DNA of 64,000 bases from Blastocatellia bacterium (GCA_963765495.1 CAVXWP010000012.1:128001-192000), one strand, 5' to 3'. Positions 6,684 through 56,789 are shown, counted from the first letter of the stretch. Numbers and translations are program-made. The notes: a model not told the origin generated them from the sequence alone.

Positions 6684-6783
6684 ACGTGATGCGTGAAGAG
6701 TGATTCGTGATTCACCTGTCTTGCCATTTGTCTTTAACAGGCGGTCTGCCTGAAAGTCACGCATCACTCTTCACGCATCACGT
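6684..6783. repeat. heptamer (CGTGATG-type) fold-back element
   Basis: Arms 6684-6712 and 6755-6783 are reverse complements at 27/29. Confidence 0.9.
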
Positions 6784-7799
6784 GAACGCATTTCCGCCGA
6801 TACGTCTGTGCGAATACAGGCAACGCGGTGATGGGGGCGTATCTCGATCAGCGGCGGCTTCTCTTTTCTGCACTCTTCGACGGCTATCGGACAGCGCGTG
6901 TGAAAACGGCACCCGGGAGGCGGGTTGATCGGCGTAGGCGCGTCACCTTCAACGCGAATGCGTCTGCGCTTTGCTCGCGGCACGGGGATCGGTATTGATG
7001 ACAAAAGCGCCTGCGTGTAGGGGTGCAGAGGGTTTGCAAACATCTCTTCGGTTTCGGCCTCTTCGACTATCTCTCCCAGATACATCACAGCAACGCGGTC
7101 GGAAATGTGTTTGACCACGGCCAGGTCGTGCGCGATGAAAAGATATGTGAGATCGAATTCCTGCTGAAGCTCTTTGAGCAGATTCAGTATCTGCGCCTGG
7201 ATGGAAACATCGAGCGCCGACACGGCCTCGTCACACACTATAAAGCGAGGGCGCACGGAAAGCGCGCGCGCGATGCCGATTCTCTGGCGCTGGCCGCCCG
7301 AAAACTCGTGCGGATAACGATTCGCATGCTCAGGCGCAAGCCCCACGAGGCGAAGAAGATCGGCGACCTGATCCCCCACCGTCTGCCGCCGCGAAGCAGC
7401 AGGGCGAGCGTTTGTCTCGTCTGCTTCGATCCGGTGAACAAGCAGCGGTTCGGCAAGCATGGCTCCGACCGTCATACGCGGATTCAGCGAACCGTAAGGG
7501 TCTTGAAATATGATCTGCATCTCGCGACGCAGCCTGCGCATTTCGCGCGCGCTCAGTGAGAGCAATTCCTGCCCGTCAAAAACCAGTCGCCCCGATGTCG
7601 GCTCAATAAGTCTCAGAATGGCTCGCCCTGTAGTGGTCTTTCCGCAGCCAGATTCGCCGACGAGCCCGAGAGTCTGGCCGCGAGGTATCGAAAAGGATAT
7701 TCCGTCTACGGCCCGCACATGCCCGACGATCTTCGGCACTATGCCCTTGCGAATCGGGTAATGTTTCACGAGATTTTCGACTACCAGCAAATCATCCAT
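6771..7799 (-). CDS. oppF: oligopeptide/dipeptide ABC transporter ATP-binding subunit
   Basis: [32 protein letters not shown]-terminal GCRFHTRCP. Confidence 0.92.
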
Positions 7800-8002
7800 G
7801 AAAGGCAAGCTCGTCGCTTTATTTCAAATCTGAAAGAGATTTCAAATCTCATCTCAAATCTCATAATAACTGATTCCGGTATTAGGATAACAAAGCCTGA
7901 TGGCTCTTGCGACTTCCTTCCGTCTTCAAGCGAACCCCTATTCCCACCCGCTCTCATCCTTCCCGGTCGTGAAGGGGGATGATTTTGAGTCTTTATGCGC
8001 TT

Positions 8003-9031
8003 TCACGCCCCTATCGACCCGCGAGTTGCGCGGCCTACCTCTTCGGCAAAATGGCAGGCGGCAAAATGACCTGGTTCGATTGCTCGCAGGTGAGGCTCCT
8101 GTTTGCATATCTCTTCGGCGAGCGGGCAGCGGGTGCGAAAGCGGCACCCTGACGGGAAATCGAGCGGGCTTGGAACCGCGCCCGGAATTACGGAAAGGAC
8201 TCTCTTGTTTTCCGTGAGAGTCGGCAGCGAACGGAAAAGCCCGTGAGTGTATGGATGTCTGGGGTGATCGAATAATTCGACGACGGGCGCGTATTCGACT
8301 ATCTTGCCGGCATACATCACGGCGACCCGTTCACAGGTTTCCGCGACCACCCCGAGATCGTGCGTAATCAACAGGACGGACATCTCAAACTCGTGTTGAA
8401 GATCATTGAGCAAATCGAGTATCTGAGCCTGAATCGTGACATCGAGCGCCGTGGTAGGCTCGTCGGCTACGAGCAGTTTAGGCTGGCATACGAGCGCCAT
8501 AGCGATCATCGCTCGCTGTTTCATGCCGCCCGATAGCTGGTGCGGATAATCATCACAGCGGGACTCAGGCGACGGGATGCCGACCCGCCCCAGCATTTCG
8601 ATGGCAATCGCGCGAGCCTCGCGGCGGGACGCCTTCCGGTGTTCGAGGATGGTCTCTATGATCTGCTGGCCGATGCTCATTATCGGGTTGAGCGAAGACA
8701 TCGGCTCCTGAAAGATCATCGAGATCATATTGCCGCGCACGCGGCGTATTTCGTCCTCATCGAGCGCAAGCAGATTCTCTCCGCGAAAACGTATCTCGCC
8801 TCCGGCATACACGGCCGGAGGCGAGGGCACGAGCTTCAGCATCGAAAAGGCTGTGACCGATTTGCCGCAACCCGATTCGCCTACAAGTCCGAGCGTTTCG
8901 CCAGAAGAGATGTGGAAACTCACTCCGTCCACGGCTTTCACGAGTCCGTCTTCCGTCTGGAAATAGACGCAAAGGTCGCTTATTTCAAGTAACGCGCCTT
9001 CGGGGTCGATGATTTCCGTATTGGCAGACAT
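8003..9031 (-). CDS. oppD: oligopeptide/dipeptide ABC transporter ATP-binding subunit
   Basis: [40 protein letters not shown]. Confidence 0.92.
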
Positions 9032-9120
9032 TCGCTTGTGCTCCCTTTTACAAATTTCAAGATAGCGGATTTACAGACGGAAAGCCCTGATTCACATTTC
9101 AACCGATCTGCAAGAGGACG

Positions 9121-9525
9121 CTATTTATGAGGTGCGAGGATGTCGCTGGCAAGATATATCTGCTGCTGCCCCTGATCCCGCACACGGCGGGCAAGATCGG
9201 CGAGGTTCTGATTTTCGTCCGGCGTGGCGAGTTTTATAACCATAGGCAGATTGACTCCCGTGACGACTTCCACCCGGGTCTCTCCCAGAAAGCTTGCGGC
9301 GATATTCGTAGGCGTGCCGCCGAACATGTCCGTAAGCAAAAGCACGCCCTCGCCCGTATCAACCCGTTGTATGGCGCGTTCAATCTCTTCGCGGGCCACA
9401 TCAACATCGTCGTGCCAGCCTATAGAGACCGCCGTGATGTGATGGATCTCTCCGACAATCATCTCAGCCGCCGATACAAGCTCGTTGGCCAACTGCCCGT
9501 GCGTTACTATTACTCCTCCGATCAT
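9121..9525 (-). CDS. PTS EIIA component, mannose/fructose family
   Basis: IVTHG phospho-His motif, TDMFGGTP, GVNLPM. Confidence 0.93.
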   Translation of the reverse strand: MIGGVIVTHGQLANELVSAAEMIVGEIHHITAVSIGWHDDVDVAREEIERAIQRVDTGEGVLLLTDMFGGTPTNIAASFLGETRVEVVTGVNLPMVIKLATPDENQNLADLARRVRDQGQQQIYLASDILAPHK

Positions 9526-9531
9526 TGGATC

Positions 9532-9609
9532 AGTTTTGAGTTATGAGTTTTAAGTTTTGAATTAGAAGAGTCTGTTTAATTCAAAACTTAAAACTCATAA
9601 CTCATAACT
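9532..9609. repeat. heptamer (GAGTTTT/AAAACTC) fold-back element
   Basis: Arms 9532-9564 and 9577-9609 are reverse complements at 32/33. Confidence 0.92.
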
Positions 9610-9613
9610 CCTT

Positions 9614-10489
9614 TCAGGCTTTGTATCGCTGCTCATCCCTGTTTATGTCGCGATGCACGACACGGGTCTTGAATCCAGCCTCGGCCAGTCGCTTATGAAT
9701 CTCTTCGGCGACCATAACCGAGCGATGACGCCCGCCCGTGCAGCCGATTCCAACCGTCAAATAGCTCTTGCCTTCGCGTTGAAAAAAGGGCAACAGATAG
9801 ATAAGCAGATCGACGAGCCTTGAGATAGTCTCTTCGACTTCGTCCTGTGATTGAAGGAATTCGATCACTGCCGGGTCGCGTCCGGTGAAGGCGCGCAACT
9901 CCGGTACGAAGTGCGGGTTTGGCAAAAACCTGACGTCAAAGAGCATATCCAGCCCGCGAGGTAACCCGTGACGAAAGCCGAACGACGTGATCGTCACAAG
10001 CATCTCCGGCGTCGCGCTCTTTTCGGCAAAGCGGTCTCTGATGGCATCGCGCAGAGTGTGAACCGTGTGTTCGGATGTATCAATGACTATATCGGCCAGT
10101 TCGCGAGTCTCTGCAAGCATCATTCGCTCCTGACCAATCGCCGCAAGCACATTCCGGTCGATCAACGGATGTGGCCTGCGCGTTTCGCTGTAACGGCGCA
10201 GCAGCACTTCATCATCCGCTTCTAAAAAGATCACCGTCACATCAATTTTTTCGTCGGCGAGCGTATCGCGAATATTTGAGAGATTCCCGAGCAGTTCACG
10301 CGAGCGCACATCGACTACGAAGGCTGTGCGGCTGATTTCGCTCGACTCTTCACACAGTCTCACAAGTGTGGGGATGAGCCGGACGGGCAGGTTATCTATT
10401 GCAAAATAGCCCAGGTCCTCAAACGTCTTGAGCGCCGAAGACATCCCCGACCCTGACACCCCGGTGATTATAACGACTGAAACTGGCAT
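9614..10489 (-). CDS. rapZ: RNase adapter RapZ
   Basis: ITGVSGSG, DNLP, RRYSETRRPHPL, SFGF, FDVRFLPNPH, GCTGGRHRSV. Confidence 0.95.
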   Translation of the reverse strand: MPVSVVIITGVSGSGMSSALKTFEDLGYFAIDNLPVRLIPTLVRLCEESSEISRTAFVVDVRSRELLGNLSNIRDTLADEKIDVTVIFLEADDEVLLRRYSETRRPHPLIDRNVLAAIGQERMMLAETRELADIVIDTSEHTVHTLRDAIRDRFAEKSATPEMLVTITSFGFRHGLPRGLDMLFDVRFLPNPHFVPELRAFTGRDPAVIEFLQSQDEVEETISRLVDLLIYLLPFFQREGKSYLTVGIGCTGGRHRSVMVAEEIHKRLAEAGFKTRVVHRDINRDEQRYKA

Positions 10490-10495
10490 AAAGCT

Positions 10496-10669
10496 GTAAG
10501 CAGTAGCAGTAAGCAGTAGGCAGTAACCAGTCCTTTTGAAGCCATGAACTGATCCGCGTAAACCCGCATGAGACGCGTCCGTCCTGGCTTATTTCAACTC
10601 TCCCATTTATGCAGTTGCCTTTAGACTAATAAACGTCCTTACTCAACTGCCTACTGCCTACTGCCTACT
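10496..10669. repeat. heptamer (AGTAGGC/GCCTACT) fold-back element
   Basis: Left arm gtaagcagtagcagtaagcagtaggcagt (10496-10524), right arm actgcctactgcctactgcctact (10646-10669), about 120-nt spacer. Confidence 0.85.
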
Positions 10670-10675
10670 ATCAGG

Positions 10676-11209
10676 TTAAGGTTCGATAAGGCCGAAGTTG
10701 CCGTCTTTGCGTTTATACAGGACTCCGACCTTGCTTGTTTCCGAGTCGCGAAATACGATGAACTGATCGGGCGAATCTTCCACGATCACGGCCGCTTCTT
10801 CGGGTGTCATGGGCTTTACACGGTAGCGGCGCGCAGAGATTATGCGCGGGGCTGGCGGAGCCGCCTCTATAGCGCCGCCGGGCACCGGGGCCACGTCTTT
10901 TACGGAAGCCCGCTTGCGCTTCTTGGCGTGAAATTTCTCTTTTAGCTTCAGAACCTGTTTTTTTACTTTATCGGCGGCCGTGGCGATGGATTGATTGATG
11001 TCCGTGTGCTCGCCTATGCCTCTGAAAACGTTGTCGCGCCAGTAAACGATTATCTCAGCATACATGCGGTGCTTTTCAGACGATAATATTACGTGCGCAT
11101 TCATAGGCGCGGAATCGAGCACGCGGTCGAGTTTTCCCAATTCCTTTCGAGTCAGTTTTTCGATTGCCGGGGTGACCTGTATATGTCGTCCGGTAAATTC
11201 AAATTCCAT
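10676..11209 (-). CDS. hpf: ribosome hibernation promoting factor, long form
   Basis: MEFEFTGRHIQVT N-domain plus C-terminal KPMTPEEA...VLYKRKDGNFGLIEP; directly downstream of rpoN. Confidence 0.93.
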   Translation of the reverse strand: MEFEFTGRHIQVTPAIEKLTRKELGKLDRVLDSAPMNAHVILSSEKHRMYAEIIVYWRDNVFRGIGEHTDINQSIATAADKVKKQVLKLKEKFHAKKRKRASVKDVAPVPGGAIEAAPPAPRIISARRYRVKPMTPEEAAVIVEDSPDQFIVFRDSETSKVGVLYKRKDGNFGLIEP

Positions 11210-11335
11210 CTTTCGTCTCCCAGAAAAAAGTCTATATGAAAAGTGACTGCCGGAGTGGCCCTTATGATAAAGCCGGTTTAGCCTCGGCGGGCGGCCTTTG
11301 GCATAAAGCAAGGGCGAGAGGCCGGCAGATACAGA

Positions 11336-12886: not shown

Positions 12887-12893
12887 AATTAAA

Positions 12894-12977
12894 TCAGTGG
12901 TCGGTGGTCAGTGGTCGGTGGTCAGTAATTTAATACCGGAACTACCGGCCACTGACCATCGGCCACCGATCACCGCC
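12894..12977. repeat. heptamer (TC(A/G)GTGG) fold-back element
   Basis: tcagtgg tcggtgg tcagtgg tcggtgg tcagt, then a degenerate complementary arm at 12941-12977; fills the lptB-rpoN gap. Confidence 0.88.
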
Positions 12978-12979
12978 AT

Positions 12980-13803: not shown

Positions 13804-16317
13804 CTACTCTCTCTGCTCTTTCGCCAGGCGATGAGTTGATCGAACGCGCCCTGTGCCCTGATTTTCGACGAAAATCTTATCATCGTGACTATACAAAGTC
13901 AATTGAGCGCCTATGGTCGTACCCTGCTCATCCGAATCAACTCTCGCGTTTTTCCCGGTCAAAACCGCCCGCCCATCGTCGGCAGTGTAATTGAGCTTAT
14001 CGCCTGTTCCCCGGCGTCCCGGCTGAGTCATCACTACGTCGCCCGTGGCAATCAGGTGATCTATCTCATTGGTTTCCTGCTTGAGGTACGAGTCAATAGA
14101 TGCGGCGTCAATTCGATCCGTGCCCTGTCGCGCCTTTACCTTGCCGTCGTAGTGGACGAGTCGTTCTTTGTCGGAGTAAGTCATGCGCTCTGCGGAGGCA
14201 AAGCCCGGCACGACTTCGTGTTTGCCGGGCTCGGCTTCACGATTGACTTTGTAGAGCGCGCTATCGACATTGCCCGTGGCAATCATCTTTTTCTCTTCCT
14301 GATAAAGTTCTATCCGGTCGGCCTTCACAAAATTGTCATCCTGCCATGCGCGGGCATTTATAGTGTATACCGCGATGCCGTCCTGATTGCGCAGGTCTGC
14401 GCGCTCGGCCGTTATGAAGACGGGCGATTTGGAGTTGCTGAAAGGAGTCGCATCATTTGTTGCCTCCCGATTGTAGTAAGTTGTGCGCACATCGCCGCGC
14501 CCGTGGGTTTCATCTTTCGCCCGGTCGTAATCAATCTCGTCGGCCTGCGTTCGCGCCTTTGCGTCCCACGCTACGGGGCGCTTGCCTCGCAGCTCAAGAA
14601 ACTCTTTCTGGTCGTCGTAGACGGCCCGGTCGGCGAGGGCGTTGCGGTCCCCTTCGTTGTATTTGAAATCGCCTTCCTGTGATATCTGCGACAGGTCTTG
14701 AGAATCGGGAAGAAAATTAGCCGTAAGCTCCCGGCTTGTCGTAACGCGAGGAGGATGCGTGTTTGCTACAAGCGATTCCACCTCTACTTTAACCCCTCCC
14801 GTGGCGTTGAATGTTTTGAGGCGACCGCCCTCTTCATAGAAATCTCCGGTCATAGAGGGAGCGTGAATAGTCTTTTTGTCAGCGCCCGCAACTGCCCGAA
14901 CCGGCGTGACGATCATCACCGCGTTGTCGTGCGCTACGGCGGTCTGAATGTTTCGCCCGTCGGGATAGAACTGCAATGTCACGTTGTCAGCCATCAACTC
15001 CCGGTTCGCAGGATTGTCCCGGTCGTTTGTGGGCGGCGGAGCGTGAACATAGACCGAAGCGCCGCCCTGGCCTACGAGCGTGTCGATACCGTTGCCTTGC
15101 TCGCCTTCGGCAAATTTAGCTTCGATGTTTTGCGCGCGGGCTTCTCTGAGCGGGTCGGGCCCGAGCGAGCGCGCGTAAGCGTTGCCTGTGGCCACGGCGC
15201 GAGACAGTTGATGATCGTCTCCGAAGAAGAAATCCATATCCGTAGACTTGATCTCGGCCTTGTCTTCCTGTTTGAGGTAAGAGTTGGTCCGCGCTTCTAT
15301 GCGCTCGATCTTGTTCGCATCATCCAGATAGCTGACCATGTGATCGGCGCGCATCTCGTCTGTGCCCTGATCGACTATGACGTTCGTGTCAAAGGTGGCG
15401 CGGTGCTCTTTCTTTTCAAGCAAAGCGGTCTGACAGCGAATATGCGTAGGTTTTTTTGGGGCGGACGGCCCGGCGGTTGAGTTTTGAGTTTTGAGTTTTG
15501 AGTTTTGAGTTTTGAGTTTTGAGTTTTGAGTTTTGAGTTTTGAGTTTTGAGTTTTCTGGTTTTGAGTTTGATTTTTCGATTTTTTAGCTGCCGATTCTTT
15601 GTTCTTCGATTGCTTGGCGAGTTTGCGCGCGCGCTTGCGAGCCTTGCGCGCCGCTTTCTCTTCCGGTGTTTCGTTTCGCTTCTTTTCGGCCTTGTCGCCT
15701 TTGTTCCCTGCTGCCCGAGGCTTGCCGTCCCCGTCCTTTTCGGGCTTGATGGTCAGGTCAACGTCTTTGAGCAGGTGAATACGTTCATCGGTCGCTTCGA
15801 TCAGCATCCCGGTCGAGCGGCCCGCGAGCTTTGGACCCTCGAATTCCACCAGTTCATTGCTGTCAACTGTGTTCTTTTGCTGATCGTAATGAAGGTAAGC
15901 GGTCTTGATGATCATCTCTTCGGTAGTCTCTACCACCACATTAGAGATAAACTCCGCGTCGAGCTTATTGAGGTCCGCAGGGTCACTCACTTTGGCGCGG
16001 TCGGCTGTGACTATATCTTTGCGAGTGCCTGCCGTGCCGTGAGATTCCAGCCTCACCTGTTCAAGCTCGTGCGTGCCGTCTTCGTAAGTCTTGTCTACGC
16101 CCGCCGTCAGGAGGAAACGCACCTGGCCTTCGACTTCGTGGGCGTAGCGGGTATTGTTAAAGACCGCCACCACTCGCCCCTGCAATTTTGGAGTGCTCTG
16201 ATCGGCATGAGGGCGATTGTCACGCACTTTGAGATAGACAACGAGCGCCACGGCTATCGATACGAAAAGCCCCAGCGCCGCCAGCTTGCCTGCCGATAAT
16301 AATTTGGTCCTAAACAT
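13804..16317 (-). CDS. fused LptC / multi-LptA(OstA) beta-jellyroll LPS bridge protein
   Basis: N-terminal TM anchor, LptC-like domain, basic linker, repeated OstA-like segments ([20 protein letters not shown]); immediately upstream of lptB. Confidence 0.8.
15479..15555 (-). repeat. perfect (AAAACTC)11 tandem repeat inside the lptC/A CDS
   Basis: Counted 11 GAGTTTT units on the + strand; translates as KTQNSKL repeats. Confidence 0.97.
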
Positions 16318-16496
16318 AAAATTTCGAAACCTGCCGCGCGTGCAAAACAATCTGCGGCGCGATTTGCGCGCAAGTAAGATTCTTACATGTCAGATGAACA
16401 GGTGTCGAATTTAAATCATACGGCAATGAATTGGTACATCGTACGTAAGAGAAGTGTCGGATTTTTTTGACAGAACTAACGGGATTTACAAGATTT

Positions 16497-17582: not shown

Positions 17583-17726
17583 GAAAAAACAATCATAACC
17601 TCTGAATTACCCGCCTGCCTCTCTAATCCTACCTCTCTAATAAGGGGCCGATGAGCAAAATCGAGCGAGCGATATATCGCTCACTCTGTCAAAAGCTAAA
17701 AGTGATAGCCGGTCTGCCGGATCAAA

Positions 17727-19478: not shown

Positions 19479-19586
19479 CCGGGCCTGCTTTATTTGCAGG
19501 CACTAAAATATCATAAACCGGGAGCCTCCGCACTATCCATGCAATCAGCAGGGCCATTCAGCTTTCCAAAATGTAGGATAGTAAAT

Positions 19587-19696
19587 TTGAAATAGGCCGG
19601 GACGGACGCGGATTAGACGGATAAACACGGATTAAATCATATAAGGTCTAATCCGCGTAAATCCGCCGCATCCGTGTCATCCGCGGCCTATTTCAA
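19587..19696. repeat. 9-nt periodic (CGGAT core) fold-back element with AATAGGCC/GGCCTATT termini
   Basis: Arms 19587-19634 and 19649-19696; near-identical copy at 36641-36743. Confidence 0.9.
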
Positions 19697-19927
19697 CTCG
19701 CCTTTGCTTCAAATCAACCTTTGATATTGTTTTCACCTATCACCTGTAGGTCAAAAACTGAACGGCCCTGATCATCCTGAGCATAGCGCCCGATTGGCCC
19801 CGGCTTGCGCGCAGGCAGTCATTCTGCTAATTTCCGAAGACCAAATTTCATAATCCGTACCGAAGCATATATCTGTATTTCCATTGCCCGGCTCTGCCCG
19901 TGATTTTGGAGAGAGAGAGGACCAGCT

Positions 19928-24866: not shown

Positions 24867-26043
24867 ATTTGATGAGAAACTGGGCTGCTTGCTCGGGCAA
24901 CACAACGAATTGATCGCCCGAAAAAACATCAGGGTCGAAGGCGGCAACGGGGTCTATGATCGCTGGGCCGATCCGATTCTCACAGCCGGGCACGCGCCTG
25001 TCTTCTGGCGCTACGATCTGAACTATGAAAGCAATCCGCATCTTCTGGAGCGAATGGTAATAAACGCGGCGTTCAATGCCGGGGCGATTGAGCTTGACGG
25101 AAAAATCCTGCTTGTCGCCCGCGTCGAAGGGGCAGACCGCAAATCATTTTTTGGCGTGGCCGAAAGCGAAACTGGCGTTGACGCGTTTAAGTTTTGGGAC
25201 TATCCCGTATGGATGCCGGAGACCGACGAGCCTGATGTGAATGTTTACGACATGCGCGTGGTCCGTCACGAAGACGGCTGGATTTATGGTCTGTTTTGCA
25301 CCGAGCGCAAAGACCCCGAGGCCGGGCCGGGCGATACTTCATCGGCCATAGCGCAGTGCGCAATTGCGCGCACAAGGGATTTGAATAGTTGGGAACGGCT
25401 TCCAGATTTGAAGACCCGCTCGCCGCAACAGCGAAACGTAGTCCTGCACCCTGAATTCGTAGACGGCAAATACGCTTTTTATACGCGTCCGCAGGACGAC
25501 TTTATCCAGGCGGGGTCCGGCGGCGGGATCGGCTGGGGGCTTGCCGATTCAATCAGCGGGGCTGTGATTGACGAAGAGAAGGTGATTGATGCCCGCGTCT
25601 ATCACACTATAAAGGAGGTGAAAAACGGCCTCGGCCCGTCGCCTATCAAAACGGATAGAGGCTGGCTGCAACTGGCGCACGGCGTTCGCAATACAGCGGC
25701 GGGGCTCCGCTATGTGCTTTATCTTTTTCTGAGCGATCTCCGAGAACCGTGGCGCATAACTCACGTTCCGGCCGGGTATTTCATCGCGCCTCGGAGGGAA
25801 GAGCGCGTAGGCGATGTCTCTAACGTCGTCTTCAGCAACGGCTGGGTAGCGCGAGCAAACGGCGAAGTCTTTATTTACTATGCGTCGTCGGATACGCGCA
25901 TGCACGTTGCGACAACCACGATTGAAAAGCTGCTCGATTATGTTTTGAACACCCCCGAAGACCCGCTTCGTTCACACGCCTGTGTGCAGCAAAGATACGA
26001 TTTGATCGCGCGAAATCTGGAATTGATGAAGAAGAAGGCGTGA
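24853..26043 (+). CDS. 4-O-beta-D-mannosyl-D-glucose phosphorylase (GH130)
   Basis: [52 protein letters not shown]. Confidence 0.92.
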
Positions 26044-26126
26044 TACGTGATGCGTGATTCGTGACCTGAAAGAGAGCTTTCTATTTACAGTGATTCCCAA
26101 TCTCACGAATCACGCATCACGTATCA
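26041..26126. repeat. heptamer (CGTGAT-type) fold-back element
   Basis: Perfect 24-bp arms at 26041-26064 and 26103-26126; begins with the GH130 TGA stop. Confidence 0.92.
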
Positions 26127-28015: not shown

Positions 28016-28054
28016 AAGCCTGCGCGGATAAATATTCAAGCAAGTAATAAACTT

Positions 28055-28121
28055 GGCTCAGAGACACAAAGACACAGAGCTTTTCAGACTCTTTTCTCCG
28101 TGTCTTTGTGTCTCTGTGGCC
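28055..28121. repeat. 8-nt periodic (ACAGAGAC) fold-back element
   Basis: ggctcagagacacaaagacacagag ... ctccgtgtctttgtgtctctgtggcc; sister copy at 31475-31550. Confidence 0.85.
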
Positions 28122-28162
28122 ATCTTGGACCGCGCGGATAAATTGACCCGCATGTCGGGTGG

Positions 28163-29134: not shown

Positions 29135-29187
29135 CAGGCGCAAGGCCGGGTTTTGCGGAAATGCTTTTAAGTGGAAATGCTTTTAAG

Positions 29188-29217
29188 TTGACTTCCTCTG
29201 TTATGAATGGATATTAT
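29188..29217 (+). promoter_or_regulatory. sigma70-type promoter preceded by a 16-bp tandem duplication
   Basis: TTGACT-N18-TATTAT; GGAAATGCTTTTAAGT twice at 29157-29188. Confidence 0.55.
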
Positions 29218-29282: not shown

Positions 29283-29639
29283 ATGCCCATCAAGATCCGA
29301 TGCGCCTGGTGCGGTCTTTTGACGGGAATCAAAGACGGCGAGGCAGTAGCAGGATTTGACACAAGTCATACGATCTGCCCCTCTTGCGCGGAGAGAGTCA
29401 ACGCCGGATTGCTGAGCCCTGTGCCAACGTGGAGCGGCACAGACAGGCGCTTGCAACCCGAACGCCGCAGGCGCGAGCGAAGAAACTCTTTGCGGTGCCT
29501 GACCGATACCCTGATAATAATTGACGGGATAACCCTGATAGACGGCGTAGGCGTAGACAGACGGCACAAGGTTCGTCGTCAGAGGGACCGCGAATGGCTG
29601 GCCGAGAAAATTATAGATATGATCTTCAACTCAAAATAG
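29283..29639 (+). CDS. small putative Zn-binding protein with Arg-rich DRR/ERR repeats
   Basis: CAWC...SHTICPSC; DRRLQPERRRRERR and DRRHKVRRQRDR. Confidence 0.7.
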   Translation: MPIKIRCAWCGLLTGIKDGEAVAGFDTSHTICPSCAERVNAGLLSPVPTWSGTDRRLQPERRRRERRNSLRCLTDTLIIIDGITLIDGVGVDRRHKVRRQRDREWLAEKIIDMIFNSK

Positions 29640-29711
29640 CAATAGCGGAATGAATCCTCGATTGCCCGGATTTATACATCTGAGCTAGAATCTGTTCCTG
29701 GCTTTGTATAG

Positions 29712-29819
29712 TGATACGTGATACCCGATGCGTGATACGTGATGCGTGACTTTCAGTCAGACAACTTGTCACAGGTGAAATCCCTACCTCACGAATCACG
29801 AGTCACAAATCACGTATCA
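29712..29819. repeat. heptamer (TGATACG/TGATGCG) fold-back element
   Basis: Left arm 29712-29750, right arm 29789-29819; spacer homologous to the 6684 element in the opposite orientation. Confidence 0.88.
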
Positions 29820-30403: not shown

Positions 30404-30466
30404 AACGCGCTGAAACGGCGCAAGGTATTTTGAAGGATTTTCCTTGCGTCGTTTCAGCGCGTTTTT
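30404..30466. terminator. long hairpin between convergent genes, probable terminator
   Basis: 22-bp arms 30404-30425 and 30442-30463 followed by a T run. Confidence 0.65.
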
Positions 30467-30505
30467 ATCTCTGATGCGAAGAGAAATACTCTAACGCGAC
30501 CGGCC

Positions 30506-31474: not shown

Positions 31475-31550
31475 AGTAGCCACAGAGACACGGAGCCACA
31501 GAGATTTTTTATAATCTTTTCTCTGTGCCTGCGGTGGCTTTGTGGCTACT
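31475..31550. repeat. 8-nt periodic fold-back element
   Basis: agtagccacagagacacggagccacagaga ... tctctgtgcctgcggtggctttgtggctact. Confidence 0.85.
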
Positions 31551-34453: not shown

Positions 34454-34520
34454 CAGGATTAACAGGATTTTTTTAGGATTCAACAAGATTTCTTTTTCAT
34501 CTTGTTGAATCCTGTCTAAA
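34448..34520. repeat. 9-nt periodic (ACAGGATTA) fold-back element
   Basis: ttttgacaggattaacaggatt...aatcctgtctaaa; sister copy at 46677-46757. Confidence 0.85.
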
Positions 34521-34556
34521 GCCTTTTTACGCATCGATGAAGTTAAGGGAAAAATC

Positions 34557-36640: not shown

Positions 36641-36743
36641 AATAGGCCACGGATGCCACGGATTAGACGGATTTACGCGGATTTGGCTCTTTATGATCTA
36701 ATCCGCGTAAATCCGTCGCATCCGCGTTTATCCGTGGCCTATT
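36641..36743. repeat. 9-nt periodic fold-back element, AATAGGCC family
   Basis: aataggccacggatgccacggattagacggatttacgcggatt ... aatccgcgtaaatccgtcgcatccgcgtttatccgtggcctatt. Confidence 0.92.
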
Positions 36744-36906
36744 TATGATTACGCTACTTTGGACCTTCGTTTGTACCACTCCTGCGCATTTCGATTTAGA
36801 GCCTGACTCTCACGGTGCGAGTAACTGGTCTCCTCTCAATCACTCCTGTTATGCTGATTTTTTCGGGCCACGCCCGACAATCTCAATTTTTAGATCAGCT
36901 TTTCCT

Positions 36907-41072: not shown

Positions 41073-41106
41073 GCATCGCCGCAAAAACCGTGACTGCCGG
41101 ATAAAT

Positions 41107-41178
41107 GCTTTGCGAGCCCGGCGTCTTAGTAAGCGACAGGTTCTCGCAAAGACGCTGAGTACGCTAGGCTCGCAAAGC
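41107..41178. repeat. fold-back element with CGCAAAG-type units
   Basis: gctttgcgagcc ... ggctcgcaaagc outer arms; internal cgcaaagacgc. Confidence 0.65.
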
Positions 41179-41220
41179 TTTTCCTGAGAATCGAATTATC
41201 CTGCTTACACACATCCTAGT

Positions 41221-43999: not shown

Positions 44000-44060
44000 A
44001 GGGATGAGGGATGAGGGATGAGGGATGAAAAGGAAGTGGGTTCATCCTTTATCCTTCCTT
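44000..44060. repeat. heptamer (AGGGATG)4 fold-back element
   Basis: agggatg x4 at 44000-44027; degenerate complement ttcatcctttatccttcctt at 44041-44060. Confidence 0.85.
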
Positions 44061-44071
44061 CAGATTTATCT

Positions 44072-46679: not shown

Positions 46680-46757
46680 CAACAGGATTAACAAGATTTG
46701 GAAGGATTAACAGGATTCTTTCCTTATCTTCTTGAATCCTGTTAATCCTGTCTAAAA
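46677..46757. repeat. 9-nt periodic (AACAGGATT) fold-back element
   Basis: aacaggattaacaagatttggaaggattaacaggatt ... aatcctgttaatcctgtctaaaa. Confidence 0.88.
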
Positions 46758-50215: not shown

Positions 50216-50338
50216 AGAAGTAGGCAGTAGGCAGTTTGTAGTGACGGAGACGCATACCAACTACTCATATGCCATACCTGGCTAGGTGTTCCTGGCCTTT
50301 TAGCTTTGGACTTGATCGTCTGCCTACTGCCTACTTCT
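50216..50338. repeat. heptamer (AGTAGGC) fold-back element
   Basis: Perfect 19-bp arms 50216-50234 and 50320-50338; right arm contains the ppiD/surA stop. Confidence 0.88.
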
Positions 50339-52722: not shown

Positions 52723-54621
52723 ATGAGGAATATCACACTGGAAGAGGTCGCTCAGACCTATGGTGTGGAAAACTGGGGGGCAGGATACTTTGAGGTAAAC
52801 CGAAAAGGACATCTTGCGGTACGCCCGGCCAAGGACGATCCCCGATCCGTTGATCTCAAAGAAGTCATAGACGATCTGGTAGAACAGCGCAAGCTTTCGC
52901 TACCCATCCTGATTCGGTTCCCGCAGATACTGGTCAATCAGCTAAAGAAGCTCAATAAATCCTTCAAGGAGTCGTCGCGCGAATTCGACTACGCCGGCAA
53001 CCACTACGCCGTGTTTCCAATGAAGGTCAATCCCCGGCGCGAGGTTGTAGAAGAATTCTTGCGCGAAGGCAGAAGATACAACTTCGGCGTGGAATGCGGG
53101 TCAAAGGCCGAGCTTTACGCGGCGCTTTCGCTCAATCAGGCACCGGAATCGCTGCTTATCTGCAACGGGTTCAAAGATCAGTCCTTTGTGGACCTCGCTT
53201 TGATAGGGACTCGGATAGGCAAGCGAGTTATGATCGTCGTAGAGAAGCTCAACGAATTGAAGATGATCGTTCGCCGCGTGCAAGAGACGGGCGTGCGCCC
53301 CTGGATAGGGCTCAGGGCAAAGCTCTATTCGCGCGGATCTGGCAAATGGGCTTCATCGGGCGGCGAATCGGCCAAGTTCGGTCTCACTACCTCGGAAATA
53401 CTCGATTGCATACGCGTGCTCCGCGAGTACGAGATGGAAGACTCGCTCAAGCTGCTCCATTTTCACATAGGCTCGCAGATAACCGACATCAAGCGTGTAA
53501 AGAACGCGATGAAGGAATCGGCCCGCGTCTATGCCAAGATACGCCAGATGCACATAAACATAGAATATCTGGACATAGGCGGCGGCATGGGCGTCGATTA
53601 CGACGGATCGAAGACCACCTTTGAATCGAGCGTAAACTATACTACGCAGGAATTTGCAAACGATGTGATCTACACTATAAAATCGGTTTGCGAAGACGAG
53701 GGTGTGCCCGAGCCGCATCTGGTCACCGAAAGCGGGCGTGTGATGTCGGCATATCACGCTGTCTTTGTGACCTCTATCCGCGACGAGATTGAGACCTTTG
53801 CCGACGACCGGCCCGAAGTAACTGTAACCGATGACGACCCGCAGGTGATAATAGAGCTTAAAGACCTCTACGACGATATAAACGCAAAGGTCTATCGCGA
53901 ATACTACCACGATGCGCTCGACCACAAAGACGAGTTGCACACGCAGTTTAATCTGGGGCTGATCAGTCTCGAAGACCGGGCCAAGGGCGAGGTGCTGTTC
54001 TGGGAAGTATGCGCGCGCGCATCAAAATTTGCCCGCGCTGCAAAGATACAGGAAGAAGAGTTTGATGAGTTGAAAAGGATTCTGGCGTCGAAGTATCTTT
54101 GCAATTTTTCGGTCTTTCGCTCGGTGCCCGATCACTGGGCCATTGACCAGCTTTTTCCTATAATGCCCATACACCGGCTCAACGAAACGCCGACCGACTA
54201 TGCCACTTTCGTGGATATAACCTGCGATTCCGATGGCCATATAGACAAGTTCGTAGACCTTAAAGATGTGAAAGAAGTGCTCGAACTTCATCCTTTCACA
54301 GGCGACCCATATTACATAGGCATATTTCTGGTCGGCGCATATCAGGAGGTAATGGGCAGCTATCACAATCTTTTCGGCATGCCAAACGAGGCTCATGTTA
54401 ATATAGACAAGGACGGCCGTTATCACATTACCCGTACTGTTCAGGGCAGTCGCATCGGCGACATGATCGCTTTTGCACGCTACGACCGCAGTCAGGCATG
54501 GGAGAATTTTCGGCGAATGACGAAGGAGCGAGTGGACGGCGGACACCTCACTCAGGATGAAGCCGACGCCCTCGTCAAGCGATACGAAGATGATATCAAC
54601 CGGTATACATATCTAGAATAG
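52723..54621 (+). CDS. speA: biosynthetic arginine decarboxylase
   Basis: WGAGYF, FPMKVN (PLP Lys), GSKAEL, HFHIGSQ, TESGR, DITCDSDG, GAYQE. Confidence 0.96.
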   Translation: MRNITLEEVAQTYGVENWGAGYFEVNRKGHLAVRPAKDDPRSVDLKEVIDDLVEQRKLSLPILIRFPQILVNQLKKLNKSFKESSREFDYAGNHYAVFPMKVNPRREVVEEFLREGRRYNFGVECGSKAELYAALSLNQAPESLLICNGFKDQSFVDLALIGTRIGKRVMIVVEKLNELKMIVRRVQETGVRPWIGLRAKLYSRGSGKWASSGGESAKFGLTTSEILDCIRVLREYEMEDSLKLLHFHIGSQITDIKRVKNAMKESARVYAKIRQMHINIEYLDIGGGMGVDYDGSKTTFESSVNYTTQEFANDVIYTIKSVCEDEGVPEPHLVTESGRVMSAYHAVFVTSIRDEIETFADDRPEVTVTDDDPQVIIELKDLYDDINAKVYREYYHDALDHKDELHTQFNLGLISLEDRAKGEVLFWEVCARASKFARAAKIQEEEFDELKRILASKYLCNFSVFRSVPDHWAIDQLFPIMPIHRLNETPTDYATFVDITCDSDGHIDKFVDLKDVKEVLELHPFTGDPYYIGIFLVGAYQEVMGSYHNLFGMPNEAHVNIDKDGRYHITRTVQGSRIGDMIAFARYDRSQAWENFRRMTKERVDGGHLTQDEADALVKRYEDDINRYTYLE

Positions 54622-54701
54622 GGGCCAGGGGCCGGGGGCCAGGGGCCAGGAAACTCAGTATGTCTGATCCTGACCCCCGCCCCCCCGACCCCCGATCCCC
54701 G
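54620..54701. repeat. heptamer (AGGGGCC) fold-back element
   Basis: aggggcc aggggcc gggggcc aggggcc agg ... cctgacccccgcccccccgacccccgatccccg. Confidence 0.85.
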
Positions 54702-54719
54702 ATTGAGGCCAATAACACA

Positions 54720-55769: not shown

Positions 55770-55821
55770 GGCACCAGGTGGCAAAAATTTTAGTGGTTAA
55801 TTTGTAGGCGAGTTTTGCGCT

Positions 55822-55868
55822 AATAGGTCACAGATGACGCGAATTAGACGCGTCATCTGTGACCTATT
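55822..55868. repeat. perfect 20-bp hairpin, short AATAGG-family element
   Basis: aataggtcacagatgacgcg-N7-cgcgtcatctgtgacctatt. Confidence 0.85.
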
Positions 55869-56033
55869 TCTATTTCACAGCCCAAAAACGACGGGTCTGC
55901 TGCCCGGCACCTCTCGCCTGTGTTAATATCTTAGTCGCGGGCGTTTATCTGGCACTTATCCTTGCGCACAATCGCGGCGGCTTTACTTTCGCGACGCGCC
56001 AGTAAATCAATCTATTACGTGGAGGTTCGAACA

Positions 56034-56732
56034 ATGAAAGCTTTCTTTACATCATTAGTGCTTTTGCTCGTCGTGACGCCGGCCGCGCTCGCTCGTCAAA
56101 ATAAAGAACGTGCCGACGAAGTGAAGCGGCTCAATCGCGCTACACAGGTCTTTTCGGAAATCATGCGCACGCCCGATAAGGGCATCCCCGAAGACCTGCT
56201 CGACAAGGCCGAATGCGTTGCCATAGTGCCGGGCTTGAAAAAAGGTGCGCTCGGGTTAGGCGGTCGCTACGGCAAGGGCGTCGTCACCTGCCGACAGGCA
56301 AACAGACGGTGGAGCGCGCCCTCTTTCCTTACGGTTGAAGGCGGCAGCGTGGGGTTTCAAATAGGCTTTGAGCAGGTGGATGTCGTTATGCTCATAATGA
56401 ACCGCACAGGAATGGAAAAACTGGTCGGTGACAAATTCACCGTAGGCGCAGACGCGTCGGCCGCTGCCGGTCCTGTCGGACGCCATACATCGGCCGGGAC
56501 AAACATAAGAATGGACGCGCAGATATTGACCTACTCGCGCGCGAAGGGGTTGTTTGCCGGTATTTCGCTTGACGGAGCCGTGGTCAAACAGGATAAGGAC
56601 GATAACCGCGATTTCTATGGCAGTGATGTAGATGCGCGGGCGATCCTCTTTGAGGCCAAAGTGCCTATGCCTGCCGAAGGACGCTCGCTCGCCGCTGCTC
56701 TTTCCCGCAACTCGCCTAGAAAGAAAAGATAA
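56034..56732 (+). CDS. lipid-binding SYLF (Ysc84) domain protein
   Basis: Signal peptide, WSAPSF, GGSVGFQIG, AAAGPVGR, YSRAKGLFAGISLDG. Confidence 0.93.
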   Translation: MKAFFTSLVLLLVVTPAALARQNKERADEVKRLNRATQVFSEIMRTPDKGIPEDLLDKAECVAIVPGLKKGALGLGGRYGKGVVTCRQANRRWSAPSFLTVEGGSVGFQIGFEQVDVVMLIMNRTGMEKLVGDKFTVGADASAAAGPVGRHTSAGTNIRMDAQILTYSRAKGLFAGISLDGAVVKQDKDDNRDFYGSDVDARAILFEAKVPMPAEGRSLAAALSRNSPRKKR

Positions 56733-56753
56733 AATCCGGTGCGCCATCCAAAG

Positions 56754-56789
56754 CGGATCTGAGATTTCAGATTTGAAATCTCAGATCCG
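56754..56789. repeat. 16-bp perfect hairpin made of ATCTGAG/ATTTCAG heptamers
   Basis: cggatctgagatttca-gatt-tgaaatctcagatccg; related single-arm array at 7821-7863. Confidence 0.8.

Follow-up and report, generated by a model that had tools for sequence, protein, structure and literature searches.

STRR-like heptamer fold-backs lie in most gaps between the genes of a Blastocatellia chromosomal region, including those of a conserved operon

The window, i.e. the whole 64,000-nucleotide stretch analysed here, is ordinary chromosome of a soil acidobacterium (Blastocatellia, Acidobacteriota), and most gaps between its genes contain a heptamer array followed by its reverse complement. By our own reading, a fold-back element is present in 19 of the 30 intergenic gaps of at least 60 nt, and in 17 of these 19 the arms are built from short tandem units, mostly heptamers. 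According to Tandem Repeats Finder, arrays with a period of 7 are located at 6685, 6757, 9532, 9577, 10491, 10646, 12897, 26039, 26103, 29711, 29789, 44000, 50219, 50320, 54620, 54672 and 56756, while the period is 8 at 28095 and 9 at 36646 and 46681.

Inverted repeats were counted with our own ungapped stem detector, using 15 dinucleotide shuffles of the window as control. There are 24 stems in the window against a shuffle mean of 4.1 (maximum 7), and 9 stems with strictly periodic arms against 0.13 (maximum 1). Strong stems, with a score of at least 14, number 15 against a mean of 0.33 (maximum 1), so the fold-back elements with tandem arms that a preliminary description had listed are clearly real. 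The predicted RNA folding energies (MFE) of the 19 elements range from -13.6 to -70 kcal/mol, with z from -2.8 to -11.8. The arm pairs and their percentages of matching given below are those of an inverted-repeat finder.

The first element, a CGTGATG-type fold-back at 6684..6783 (arms 6684-6710 and 6757-6783, spacer 46 nt), pairs at 26 of 27 nt (96%; MFE -52.5, z -9.1). It fills the convergent gap between an NYN-domain gene and an ABC ATPase gene, and reaches 13 nt into the end of this ATPase gene. The single arm noted earlier at 7821, which lies between two ABC ATPase genes, is present as a small AGATTTG/GAAATCT element (7815..7866), although it is weak (MFE -13.6, z -2.8).

Even the tight junctions within the conserved lptB-rpoN-hpf-rapZ-EIIA operon are filled. 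At rapZ|EIIA, a GAGTTTT/GAGTTAT fold-back (9532..9609; arms 9532-9564 and 9577-9609, loop 12 nt; 32 of 33 nt, 97%; MFE -40.0, z -11.8) is preceded by TGA AAGGAG on the sense (minus) strand. The hpf|rapZ junction holds an AGTAGGC/CAGTAGG fold-back (10491..10669; arms 10491-10531 and 10646-10669; MFE -70.0) whose 114-nt spacer contains, at about 10550-10600, half a copy of the 9-mer family to which 19572 and 36641 belong, with GGCTTATTT at 10586. At lptB|rpoN lies a TCRGTGG fold-back (12893..12975; arms 12893-12922 and 12941-12970; 25 of 30 nt, 83%; MFE -47.2), and the orthologous elements in 17 other genomes have other units. An 848-aa LptC/LptA-like ORF has in a lysine-rich linker an in-frame array missing from the earlier list, 13 copies of TTGAGTT at 15477..15569 on the minus strand (13.1 copies, 93% matches in Tandem Repeats Finder). 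This array shares its unit family with 9532 but has a single arm, and is related to the fold-backs without being one.

Two palindromes have a CGGAT core. The longer one, with 9/10-mer units (19572..19711; arms 19572-19641 and 19642-19711; 70 nt, 70%; MFE -63.3, z -8.5), is imperfect, lies in the divergent region between recJ and a symporter gene, and has the termini AAATAGGCC...GGCCTATTT. The other, with 9-mer units (36641..36744; arms 36659-36683 and 36700-36724; 25 nt, 92%; MFE -68.0, z -11.1), has the termini AATAGGCC...GGCCTATTT, and its 3' end is the start of the next ORF. Both had been described as 9-mer arrays, at 19587 and 36641; the elements stand, while their periodicity is weak (autocorrelation 0.45-0.67). 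Another pair of 9-mer fold-backs, of ACAGGATTA type, have termini in common: one begins at the stop codon of the second M16 peptidase gene (34454..34527; 15/15 core), the other immediately 3' of the stop codon of a MaoC-like gene (46680..46755; arms 46703-46718 and 46734-46749; 16 nt, 100%).

The stop codon of a GH130 gene falls within the first unit of a CGTGATN fold-back at 26041..26126 (arms 26041-26064 and 26103-26126; 24 nt, 100%; MFE -44.2), and a CGTGATA fold-back at 29711..29819 (44 nt, 70%; MFE -41.3) is located 22 nt 5' of a thioredoxin-like gene. Units of eight nucleotides build the fold-back between fmt and miaA (CASAGACA; 28059..28116; arms 28059-28079 and 28096-28116; 21 nt, 95%; period-8 score 0.85; MFE -33.4) and that in a divergent region at 31475..31550 (CCACAGAG; 15/17; MFE -40.5, z -6.7). 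The 8-mer label given to 41107 is not confirmed, since periodicity is unclear in what is a nested hairpin (41103..41182; 22 nt, 86%; period score 0.38-0.54; MFE -41.1).

Four perfect AGGGATG units (4.1 copies, 100%) with a degenerate complementary arm begin 3 nt past the tal stop codon (44000..44070; MFE -30.2, z -3.2). An AGTAGGC fold-back (50216..50338; arms 50216-50234 and 50320-50338, spacer 85 nt; 19 nt, 100%; MFE -54.5) occupies the whole of a convergent gap and runs into the end of a SurA-like gene. The AGGGGCC array that overlaps the speA stop codon is followed by a complementary GRCCCCC array (54620..54702; 19/24; MFE -48.5). The supposed 9-mer array at 55822 is instead a perfect 20-bp palindrome that is not periodic (55822..55868; arms 55822-55841 and 55849-55868; 100%; z -10.0), with termini resembling those of the 9-mer family. 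The last element is an ATCTGAG/ATTTCAG fold-back (56754..56789; arms 56754-56769 and 56774-56789, loop 4 nt; 16/16, 100%).

The 64-kb window was compared with 79 related loci, for which the DNA amounts to about 21 kb per genome. A complementary partner lies within 300 nt of 274 of the 335 intergenic heptamer arrays (at least 3 copies). In total, 437 arrays use at least 170 distinct heptamer units, the commonest being GGATTGC, GGATTTT, CAGAAGT, CAGTGGT and GTCATTT, and most units are without G-runs; this bears out the description of one architecture with many unit sequences. The architecture is a convergent pair, i.e. a G-rich array, a spacer and the reverse complement, which makes every element a long, imperfect palindrome. 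The polarity is clear among the intergenic heptamer arrays: of the G-rich arrays, 122 have the partner downstream and 17 upstream, while of the C-rich arrays, 118 have it upstream and 11 downstream; the 5' arm has more G than C in 114 of 133 Tandem Repeats Finder pairs.

The fold-backs occur only between genes (of 165 periodic stems, 0 are intragenic), and just 3 of the 165 are in divergent promoter regions. The arms and spacers have median lengths of 29 and 31 nt, and the stem starts a median of 3 nt past the upstream stop codon (IQR -1 to 7). The distances to the next start are lower bounds because downstream starts are longest-ORF calls, with conserved N-termini only at lptB|rpoN and rapZ|EIIA; at these two junctions the 3' arm stops a few nt 5' of the conserved ATG. 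In several genomes the ribosome-binding motif sits in the stem base, and first units often take in the stop codon or ribosome-binding site of the upstream gene itself, for example TAG-TCATTTG, TAG-TGCTGAG and TGA-AAGGAG-TCAGGAG.

The class is found lineage-wide in Blastocatellia, with a small set of unit families peculiar to each genome: 14 of 164 within-genome pairs share a unit compared with 128 of 7462 between-genome pairs, a difference reached by 0 of 1000 permutations. Comparison of occupied and empty sites among relatives, as had been proposed, reveals presence/absence polymorphism at orthologous junctions. The hpf|rapZ junction is occupied in 29 of 37 relatives. At rapZ|EIIA, 18 of 36 genomes have the element, with a median gap of 89 nt against 20 nt without it, and at some empty sites the stop codon directly meets or overlaps the next start (TGA then ATG, gap 0 to -4). 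The abc2|abc1 junction is occupied in 5 of 31, with gaps of 187 and 13 nt, respectively. Within the same operon, the element is absent from 21 of 41 distant loci and from 4 of 38 close ones.

A single site can carry many different units, 20 at hpf|rapZ and 15 at lptB|rpoN, and units at the same site differ between genomes by single-base steps. Pairing is kept while the sequence changes, in agreement with the earlier claim that fold-back matters more than sequence. In the lptB|rpoN element of 18 genomes, where the arms co-vary, 69.1% of the cells are paired against 28-46% with the partners slid, and the main helix has double changes in 13 of 21 pairs. Changes on both sides affect 44 cells, compared with 24.5 in the shuffles (reached by 0 of 500), a control that is inflated by relatedness for a structure chosen after the alignment was viewed. 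This co-variation could also come from replacement of the whole element. The mirroring of unit variants between arms, also claimed before, is clear in 6684, 9532 and 26041 and small overall: best arm-to-arm scores average 22.2, compared with 21.2 once the unit order of one arm has been shuffled, and 54 of 94 elements beat their own unit-order shuffles (Wilcoxon p = 6e-5).

The elements are STRR-type, or "long simple sequence repeat", heptamer microsatellite arrays, with some 8- and 9-mers. The analogy to cyanobacterial STRRs drawn earlier holds: these are 7-bp intergenic units able to form hairpins between co-transcribed genes, e.g. hupS / hupL, with proposed roles in transcript stability, translational coupling or termination (PMC2670836, PMC2408588). 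Two units found here, AGTTGTC (6 arrays) and AATTGCG (5 arrays), correspond by rotation to the repeats ttgtcagttgtcag and attgcgaattg of Nostoc PCC 7120. However, the STRRs are described locus by locus in filamentous cyanobacteria, and the cited passages give no census of fold-back, polarity or turnover at orthologous sites.

The system is also less poorly described than had been stated, as convergent, stop-codon-adjacent heptamer arrays are published for Xanthomonas (PMC4692102). In that study (Rehm et al. 2015), the G-rich heptamers GGGAATC in Xanthomonas and GGGGA(C/T)T in Nostoc/Anabaena are about 90% intergenic and under-represented between divergent genes, and GGGAATC forms 70 and 75 convergent array pairs with possible stem-loops. 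The G-rich strand is the sense strand where arrays overlap the stop codon or lie no more than 50 bp from it, and the antisense strand just upstream of ORFs, and copy number and sequence differ at the same site between close relatives. The tandem, intergenic and stop-adjacent arrangement, the convergent pairs and the site variation are thus shared with our elements. However, one unit dominates each of those genomes and interest lies in G-quadruplexes, while here there are at least 170 units, mostly without G-runs. Fold-back is the rule here, while only a few pairs are reported for Nostoc. The Acidobacteriota phylum, the filling of tight core-operon junctions and the arm co-variation across species are further differences.

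Intergenic heptamer arrays scattered sporadically across phyla are also known from the TAACTGA direct repeats of marine Beggiatoaceae, some cyanobacteria and Bacteroidetes (MacGregor 2015; PMC4679880). These arrays stop a few nt short of start codons, show 7-nt-step indels between strains, and are suspected of a post-transcriptional role. The reverse complement of TAACTGA is one base from our unit TCAGTTT. In contrast to the paired, inverted arrays of many units found here, TAACTGA is one unit in single direct arrays upstream of starts (169 direct, 1 inverted). The REP, BIME and REPIN elements are likewise abundant noncoding intergenic palindromes, often just 3' of genes and within operons, a REPIN being two inverted copies that form a long hairpin (PMC3116915, PMC3333891). 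However, a genome has REPs of one or a few sequences only, in nearly identical copies that lack internal periodicity and are linked to a RAYT gene, while our elements have tandem-array arms in many sequence families, and no RAYT is found among the 75 ORFs scanned.

We suggest, with a probability of about one half, that the elements are STRR-like heptamer palindromes renewed by slippage and arm-to-arm copying, and tolerated through fold-back of the transcript. In the mechanism that we infer, replication slippage would lengthen and shorten the arrays in 7-nt steps and unit variants would spread along the array, while DNA-level copying between the arms, by template switching or gene conversion across the palindrome, would keep them complementary. 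New sites would be seeded from other arrays via microhomology with the local sequence, which could be why the first unit often carries a stop codon or ribosome-binding site; such first units fit a local origin or microhomology copying better than cut-and-paste. Classical transposition would not be necessary for new arrays to originate. In the transcript, the arms would pair as a hairpin of -25 to -70 kcal/mol and loop out the inserted DNA, keeping the stop and the next start side by side in the spacing of genomes without the element, and hence only fold-backs would survive. The elements are thus probably tolerated because the transcript folds back on itself. A hairpin 3' of the stop may, as side effects, protect mRNA ends, serve as an RNase III substrate and couple the translation of neighbours. 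However, slippage leaves the G-first polarity unexplained, arm-to-arm copying predicts more mirroring than the small overall effect, and the patchy distribution among loci suggests a genome-specific factor that simple slippage does not predict.

It is less probable that the elements are selected RNA devices, acting in mRNA 3'-end protection, as RNase III sites between cistrons, or by making downstream initiation depend on a ribosome that melts the stem base after the upstream gene. Similar roles in transcript stability or translational coupling have been proposed for cyanobacterial STRR hairpins (PMC2670836). The very stable predicted hairpins, the position of the 5' arm just past the stop codon and of the 3' arm just before a conserved ATG, the ribosome-binding motif in the stem base, the occupancy of the same junctions in most relatives (as at hpf|rapZ), the arm co-variation and the scarcity in divergent promoter regions all agree with this. 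However, mismatches on the sense strand are as often of A·C type (111) as of G·U type (118; p = 0.69), so the excess of G·U that RNA-level selection normally leaves is lacking and the earlier notion of an RNA-structure constraint is not supported. This points to upkeep of the fold-back at the DNA level. Further, many close relatives have no element at the same junction, with adjacent or overlapping genes, and 19572 and 31475 lie in divergent regions, where one transcript need not span both arms.

Equally doubtful is movement in trans, as non-autonomous MITE- or REPIN-like elements, by an enzyme encoded elsewhere, the window copies being empty relatives of cassettes with small selfish genes such as the four-helix-bundle (23S rRNA IVS-type) gene. 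Besides the genome-specific unit families and the patchy distribution, some elements look like dispersed copies more than local growths: locus L009 carries an element twice, almost unchanged even in the spacer (1-164 and 5737-5884), the spacers of three elements in L064 are related, and the 9-mer family with its shared, conserved termini is specific to the window, where exact GGCCTATTT occurs 3 times against 0 in the 79 other loci. One family is nested in the spacer of another at 10491-10669 and at L017:1349-1779. One of the 75 small ORFs adjoining arrays, L064:2768-3127, is a four-helix-bundle gene (TIGR02436/PF05635), the sole tblastn match in 1.38 Mb. It lies directly 3' of a TTAGCTG fold-back and runs into another TTAGCTG array, while the junction in the closest relative, L071, has the fold-back alone. 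As with the 23S rRNA intervening-sequence genes, a small gene thus sits beside or inside a long stem; unlike them, it lies in the array of an arm and not in the loop, and the window has none. The link to such genes mentioned earlier is thus real but rare, and that to GxxExxY genes found no example among the 75.

However, no target-site duplications were found among 162 elements: the longest direct flank match averages 4.19 nt against 4.15 nt for unrelated flanks, and matches of at least 6 nt occur in 12 of 162 against 8.2%. IS200/605-type enzymes leave no duplications. Among the 75 ORFs, which come from 64 kb of this genome and about 21 kb per further genome, none is a Y1 transposase/RAYT, PDDEXK_3 (GxxExxY) or DUF559 gene, and the description of the elements as empty, non-autonomous members of a mobile system is not supported. 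The single-base unit steps at one site look like evolution in place, and the stop codon or ribosome-binding site built into first units is local.

Structures or protein sites at the DNA level, such as cruciforms, G-quadruplex/i-motif pairs or arrays binding nucleoid or repair proteins, are quite improbable. The strand-symmetric architecture, with a polarity independent of the direction of the flanking genes, and the missing wobble signal would fit, and G-rich heptamers of Xanthomonas and Nostoc form G-quadruplexes in vitro (PMC4692102). However, quadruplexes cannot be general because most units here lack G-runs, a single sequence-specific binding protein is hard to reconcile with 170 different units, and the strict placement at stop codons points to gene expression over chromosome structure. 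Ordinary factor-independent terminators are rejected as the least likely class, although the hairpins lie just 3' of stop codons and 2 of 20 listed window parts (55822-55868 and 56753-56790) pass a loose pattern scan, which accepts loops of 3-8 nt only and so cannot judge most elements: the 3' arm is not followed by a run of T (on average 3.1 T in 10 nt, compared with 3.55 for the other strand; at least 6 T in 12%), the arms and spacers are long, the sites lie between co-transcribed core genes of a conserved operon, and classical hairpins with T-runs are found separately at 30404-30470 and 57054-57094.

The STRR-like palindromes thus belong to a poorly understood kind of repeat that is already known from cyanobacteria and Xanthomonas. 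What is new in comparison with these repeats is that the palindromes here come in dozens of sequence versions, at sites even within conserved operons.

The fold-back elements, in which a tandem array is followed by a spacer and the reverse-complement array, are located where the preliminary description placed them; Tandem Repeats Finder (TRF) and an inverted-repeat finder recovered them, and each was confirmed in the sequence. Our own ungapped stem detector finds 24 stems in the window, 15 with a score of at least 14 and 9 with strictly periodic arms, while the means of 15 dinucleotide shuffles of the window are 4.1, 0.33 and 0.13, respectively. By direct reading, 19 of the 30 window gaps of at least 60 nt contain a fold-back, with visibly periodic arms in 17 of these 19, and the density is roughly one element per 3 kb. 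Period 7 is the commonest tandem-repeat class (22 of 46 window arrays), and at least seven unit families occur inside the 64 kb. The predicted RNA hairpins of the window elements have minimum free energies from -13.6 to -70 kcal/mol and z-scores from -2.8 to -11.8. The arms of the three CGTGATG and two AGTAGGC elements align with MAFFT, but their spacers align only patchily.

Some earlier labels needed revision. The element at 41103-41182, listed as an 8-mer array, is a nested hairpin, and the one at 55822-55868, listed as a 9-mer array, is a perfect palindrome that shows no periodicity. Of the 9-mer elements, those at 19587 and 36641 exist but are only weakly periodic, and the single arm at 7821 is marginal. 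The list also lacked a 13-copy single arm at 15477-15569. These 93 nt keep the frame through all 13 heptamer copies inside an 848-aa minus-strand ORF (13804-16350), which joins LptC-like and LptA-like domains, and they encode a KTQNSKL-type repeat in a lysine-rich linker. Either the ORF encodes a genuine fusion protein, its linker supplied by the repeat, or it merges two genes, the array being free of stop codons in that frame. In the fmt-miaA gap, an exact 12-nt direct repeat (GCGCGGATAAAT, at 28022-28033 and 28132-28143) brackets the 8-mer fold-back, and the similar CGGATAAAT is found at 41097-41105. The bracketing repeat could be an insertion-made duplication or remnants of the CGGAT-core family, i.e., the 9/10-mer palindromes at 19572 and 36641 with a half copy near 10550-10600. 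Direct repeats of longer period lie at 61773-61817, 29157-29188, 56817-56846 and 17614-17641, namely a 15-mer in three copies inside metG and, in intergenic DNA, one 16-mer and two 14-mers in two copies each; none of them is a fold-back.

The window is ordinary chromosome with a G+C of 0.53-0.57. The gene list, hand-curated from Pfam matches, contains a histidine kinase/NtrC pair, two oligopeptide ABC ATPases, recJ, a sodium:solute symporter, the conserved cluster LptC/LptA-lptB-rpoN-hpf-rapZ-EIIA, GH5 and GH130 enzymes, fmt, miaA, two M16 peptidases and an S46 peptidase, as well as transaldolase, glucose-6-phosphate dehydrogenase, arginine decarboxylase, deoxyhypusine synthase, larC, folE and metG. 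The tRNA/tmRNA scan of the window found no gene, and Rfam gave no match at gathering thresholds on either strand of the 64 kb. A 707-nt gap holds a 118-aa ORF (29283-29639, plus strand) with paired cysteine motifs, zinc-ribbon-like by eye, that matches no family in Pfam or NCBIfam. For rapZ and hpf, the longest ORFs extend beyond the conserved N-termini (10435-10489 and 11209-11311); relatives align from residue 19 of rapZ and from about residue 30 of hpf, whose start was set to the ATG at 11208. Start-codon calls beside arrays are unreliable.

The window RpoN is 84-85% identical to its best database relatives, and those with names are Blastocatellia (Acidobacteriota). The arrays were compared across 79 rpoN-centred loci, 1.31 Mb in total, which exclude the window's own genome. 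Here, arrays of period 7 far outnumber any other tandem-repeat class (538 of 1252 arrays). Periodic stems number 103 in 642 kb among the 38 loci whose RpoN is at least 74% identical, only 4 of which lack them, and 54 in 671 kb among the 41 more distant loci, 21 of which lack them. Window and loci together contain 366 heptamer arrays with at least three copies, of which 335 are intergenic, and for 274 of these 335 a complementary partner lies at most 300 nt away. None of 165 periodic stems is inside a gene. The median arm is 29 nt and the median spacer 31 nt, with a complementarity of 0.93. In all, 170 distinct heptamer units are found among 437 arrays of the window and the loci, the commonest being GGATTGC, GGATTTT, CAGAAGT, CAGTGGT, GTCATTT and CAGAAGG.

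Some loci show further arrangements. In locus L017, a composite at 1349-1779 has three nested layers: outer heptamer arms, a second inverted repeat and about five REP-like GC-rich palindromes (GCGCCC.TTCAGGGC). In L022, a BrnT-family toxin gene (PF04365; 7993-8859), followed by its probable antitoxin gene, is inserted between hpf and rapZ with a different heptamer fold-back on either side. The record label of L004, L021, L022, L031 and L037, "uncultured Clostridia bacterium", looks wrong, since their RpoN is 59-84% identical to that of the window and their rpoN operon order is that of Blastocatellia.

The order lptB-rpoN-hpf-rapZ-EIIA-ABC-ABC is kept in close relatives, so that orthologous junctions can be compared. 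A periodic fold-back is present in 19 of 36 genomes at lptB-rpoN, 14 of 39 at rpoN-hpf, 29 of 37 at hpf-rapZ, 18 of 36 at rapZ-EIIA, 7 of 35 at EIIA-abc2 and 5 of 31 at abc2-abc1. The same junctions are thus occupied in some genomes and empty in others, which is the presence/absence polymorphism that had been proposed as a check; rpoN-hpf is empty in the window and occupied in 14 other genomes. At junctions without an element the genes are close or overlapping. The rapZ-EIIA gap has a median of 20 nt when empty and 89 nt when occupied, and the abc2-abc1 gap is 13 nt and 187 nt, respectively; the occupied gap is about as long as the element. Empty rapZ-EIIA sites include stop and start codons that abut or overlap (TGA then ATG, gap 0 to -4). 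The units at one site vary between genomes: 20 distinct units are found across genomes at hpf-rapZ, 15 at lptB-rpoN and 11 at rapZ-EIIA. Many are separated by single-base steps, such as GTCATTT, GTCATTG, GTCAGTT, GCCAGTT and GTCCGTT at lptB-rpoN. Several rapZ-EIIA elements start with TGA-AAGGAG, and the unit AGGAGTC of the L028 element at this junction contains a ribosome-binding motif.

The elements have a clear polarity. In the window and the loci, the partner of a G-rich array lies downstream in 122 cases and upstream in 17, the partner of a C-rich array lies upstream in 118 and downstream in 11, and in 114 of 133 TRF pairs the 5' arm has more G than C. A palindrome reads the same from either strand, and therefore this G-first polarity belongs to the element and not to the direction of transcription; the G-rich strand points 5' to 3' from the adjoining gene towards the center of the gap, regardless of gene direction. 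Between co-directional genes, the median distance from the upstream stop codon to the start of the stem is 3 nt (IQR -1 to 7), and this stop codon is often inside the first unit. The median distance to the next start is 9 nt, a lower bound since the longest ORFs were used; at lptB-rpoN and rapZ-EIIA, with their conserved N-termini, 2-10 nt separate the end of the 3' arm from the ATG. A supply of stop codons was rejected as the cause of the polarity, as the commonest units have no stop triplet in the G-rich reading. Candidate causes are avoidance of an unpaired C-rich first arm on which Rho could load, a need for an unstructured A/C-rich stretch beside start codons, or a writing mechanism that adds G-rich units at 3' ends.

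Complementarity between the arms appears to be kept while the sequences change. The lptB-rpoN junctions of 18 genomes were aligned with MAFFT without fitting to any structure, and were scored on a 30-pair structure drawn after seeing this alignment, i.e., from the same sequences; on it, 69.1% of the cells are paired, compared to 60.8% after shuffling and 28-46% with the partners slid by 1-3 columns. Changes on both sides occur in 44 cells against 24.5 in shuffles (none of 500 reaches 44), a control that is inflated by relatedness. The covariation score is 0.249, against 0.142 shuffled and 0.05-0.12 slid, and double changes are seen in 13 pairs of the 21-pair main helix. Replacement of whole elements would give the same picture.

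Unit variants had been described as mirrored between the arms. This is clear in the elements at 6684, 9532 and 26041, but the overall effect is small: in the within-element test the mirrored unit order scores 22.2 against 21.2 and is favored in 54 of 94 elements. A first mirror test (314 mismatches, 527.7 expected) was discarded as biased, because the detector chooses the best register. Sense-strand mismatches of the G·U type (118) and of the A·C type (111) are about equally frequent and give no signal of RNA-specific selection, thus the upkeep of pairing does not look RNA-specific, and we favor arm-to-arm copying at the DNA level. Template switching across quasi-palindromes is well established as a source of mutations.

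The arrays could be dispersed, as mobile elements are, rather than home-grown. A unit is shared in 14 of 164 within-genome pairs and in 128 of 7462 between-genome pairs, a five-fold difference that none of 1000 permutations reaches. L009 contains near-identical copies of one element (1-164 and 5737-5884), including the ~95-nt spacer, and L064 has three elements with related spacers. The CGGAT-core family with GGCCTATTT termini has three exact copies in the window and none in the 79 loci, and elements are nested in the spacers of other elements at 10491-10669 in the window and in the L017 composite. Several results speak against classical transposition. Local stop codons and ribosome-binding sites are built into first units, and target-site duplications, which MITEs show together with terminal inverted repeats, were not found among 162 elements. 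The longest direct match of the 25-nt flanks averages 4.19 nt, compared to 4.15 nt for unrelated flanks, and matches of at least 6 nt occur in 12 of the 162 elements, compared to 8.2% for unrelated flanks. The Y1 transposase (RAYT, PF01797) matched none of 50 window proteins and none of 75 small ORFs adjoining arrays, and neither PDDEXK_3 (GxxExxY) nor DUF559 was found among these 75. The first copy in L009 lies at the very start of its contig, a position that would be expected if short-read assemblies break at such repeats.

The preliminary description named four-helix-bundle and GxxExxY genes as companions of such arrays, and noted that the window has none; indeed, no gene of either kind is enclosed by arrays there. 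For the four-helix bundle the association is real but rare, with one gene in the 79 loci. It encodes a TIGR02436/PF05635 protein (L064:2768-3127; E = 1.7e-37 and 6.6e-38), starts 2 nt past a TTAGCTG fold-back and runs into a further TTAGCTG array, and L071, the closest relative of L064, has only a fold-back at this junction. A tblastn search with the L064 protein matched only itself; with a family this diverse, one query has little power to find other members.

Alternatively, the arrays might be written by an enzyme and not by passive slippage, with G-rich units template-added to the two 3' ends of an intergenic break that is then joined, a bacterial counterpart of head-to-head telomere fusion. 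A G-rich strand running from the gene to the gap center is the pattern expected from templated 3'-end addition and joining. Heptamer units are also common to Blastocatellia, cyanobacteria and Beggiatoaceae, and related genomes have many arrays or none; on this model these patterns would imply a machinery that is shared and moves horizontally. It might be a reverse transcriptase or a primase-polymerase, and the Avd-like four-helix-bundle gene beside one array is a possible accessory. We regard this scenario as very improbable.

REP/REPIN sequences occupy the same habitat and also form a hairpin, but they are not internally periodic, and their uniform sequence and, so far, their RAYT have no counterpart here. 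A REP/REPIN genome carries many near-identical copies of one short palindrome, but at least seven unit families are found here in 64 kb and 170 units overall; only the CGGAT-core family, with 3.5 copies, comes close to that pattern. Intrinsic terminators are ruled out by the 29-nt median arms, by the placement inside the lptB-rpoN-hpf-rapZ operon and by the lack of a T-tract after the 3' arm (3.1 T per 10 nt, compared to 3.55 on the opposite strand; at least 6 T in 12%). Of the elements, only 55822-55868 and 56753-56790 are picked up by a terminator pattern scan, which is limited to loops of 3-8 nt and so has no bearing on most of them. Non-periodic hairpins with T-runs at 30404-30470, between convergent genes and with T-runs on both sides, and at 57054-57094 look like ordinary terminators; the genome thus also uses classical terminators, and the arrays are something else. 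A CRISPR array is excluded, as no spacers separate the units and the second half runs in the opposite orientation.

We favor STRR-like heptamer microsatellite palindromes (STRR, short tandemly repeated repetitive sequences). Bacterial heptamer repeats, both STRR and long simple-sequence repeats, have been known since about 1990, and to our knowledge there is no agreement on their origin and function. As in STRRs, the 7-nt units are head-to-tail, in several copies and at many dispersed loci. The closest description is that of the Xanthomonas GGGAATC arrays (PMC4692102, Rehm et al. 2015), which are about 90% intergenic, within 50 bp of a stop codon or overlapping it with the G-rich strand as sense, rare between divergent genes and mostly transcribed, with 70 and 75 cases of convergent pairs. 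The same rule, intergenic with the G-rich sense strand beside the stop codon, is found here, and so are convergent inverted pairs able to form a stem-loop. Other papers state that STRR hairpins of cyanobacteria are "not unusual" between co-transcribed genes and that their function is not known (PMC2670836), list two Nostoc PCC 7120 repeats that are rotations of units found here (PMC2408588), and describe the TAACTGA repeats of Beggiatoaceae as single direct arrays upstream of start codons (PMC4679880). [quoted passage not shown]

To account for this architecture, polarity, placement and turnover, and for the absence of terminator and transposon signatures, we suggest that slippage and arm-to-arm copying could renew the arrays, while microhomology-based copying between arrays might spread unit families within a genome. 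Transcribed gaps may tolerate only inserts that fold back, because the hairpin loops the insert out, so that stop and start remain next to each other as at empty sites. Likely candidate consequences for the mRNA are 3'-end protection, RNase III cleavage and translation coupling.

The elements are real, abundant and lineage-wide, and the kind of repeat to which they belong is known but still lacks an explanation. New here are the phylum, the dominance of the fold-back form and the number of unit families, together with the occupation of tight core-operon junctions whose orthologous sites are empty and the covariation of arms across species. In practice, short-read assemblies break at these elements, the calling of start codons is disturbed by them, and they may be misread as terminators or small RNAs. 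The lineage is unusually easy to analyse, as the arrays are dense, almost always paired and present in many sequence versions, and it provides a structural rule to explain, namely that the G-rich arm comes first and begins at the stop codon. Elements at the same junctions of a universally conserved operon in dozens of species, beside relatives with empty junctions, are natural before-and-after comparisons, and allow one to test directly whether foreign DNA can, by means of a hairpin, sit in an operon without uncoupling its genes.
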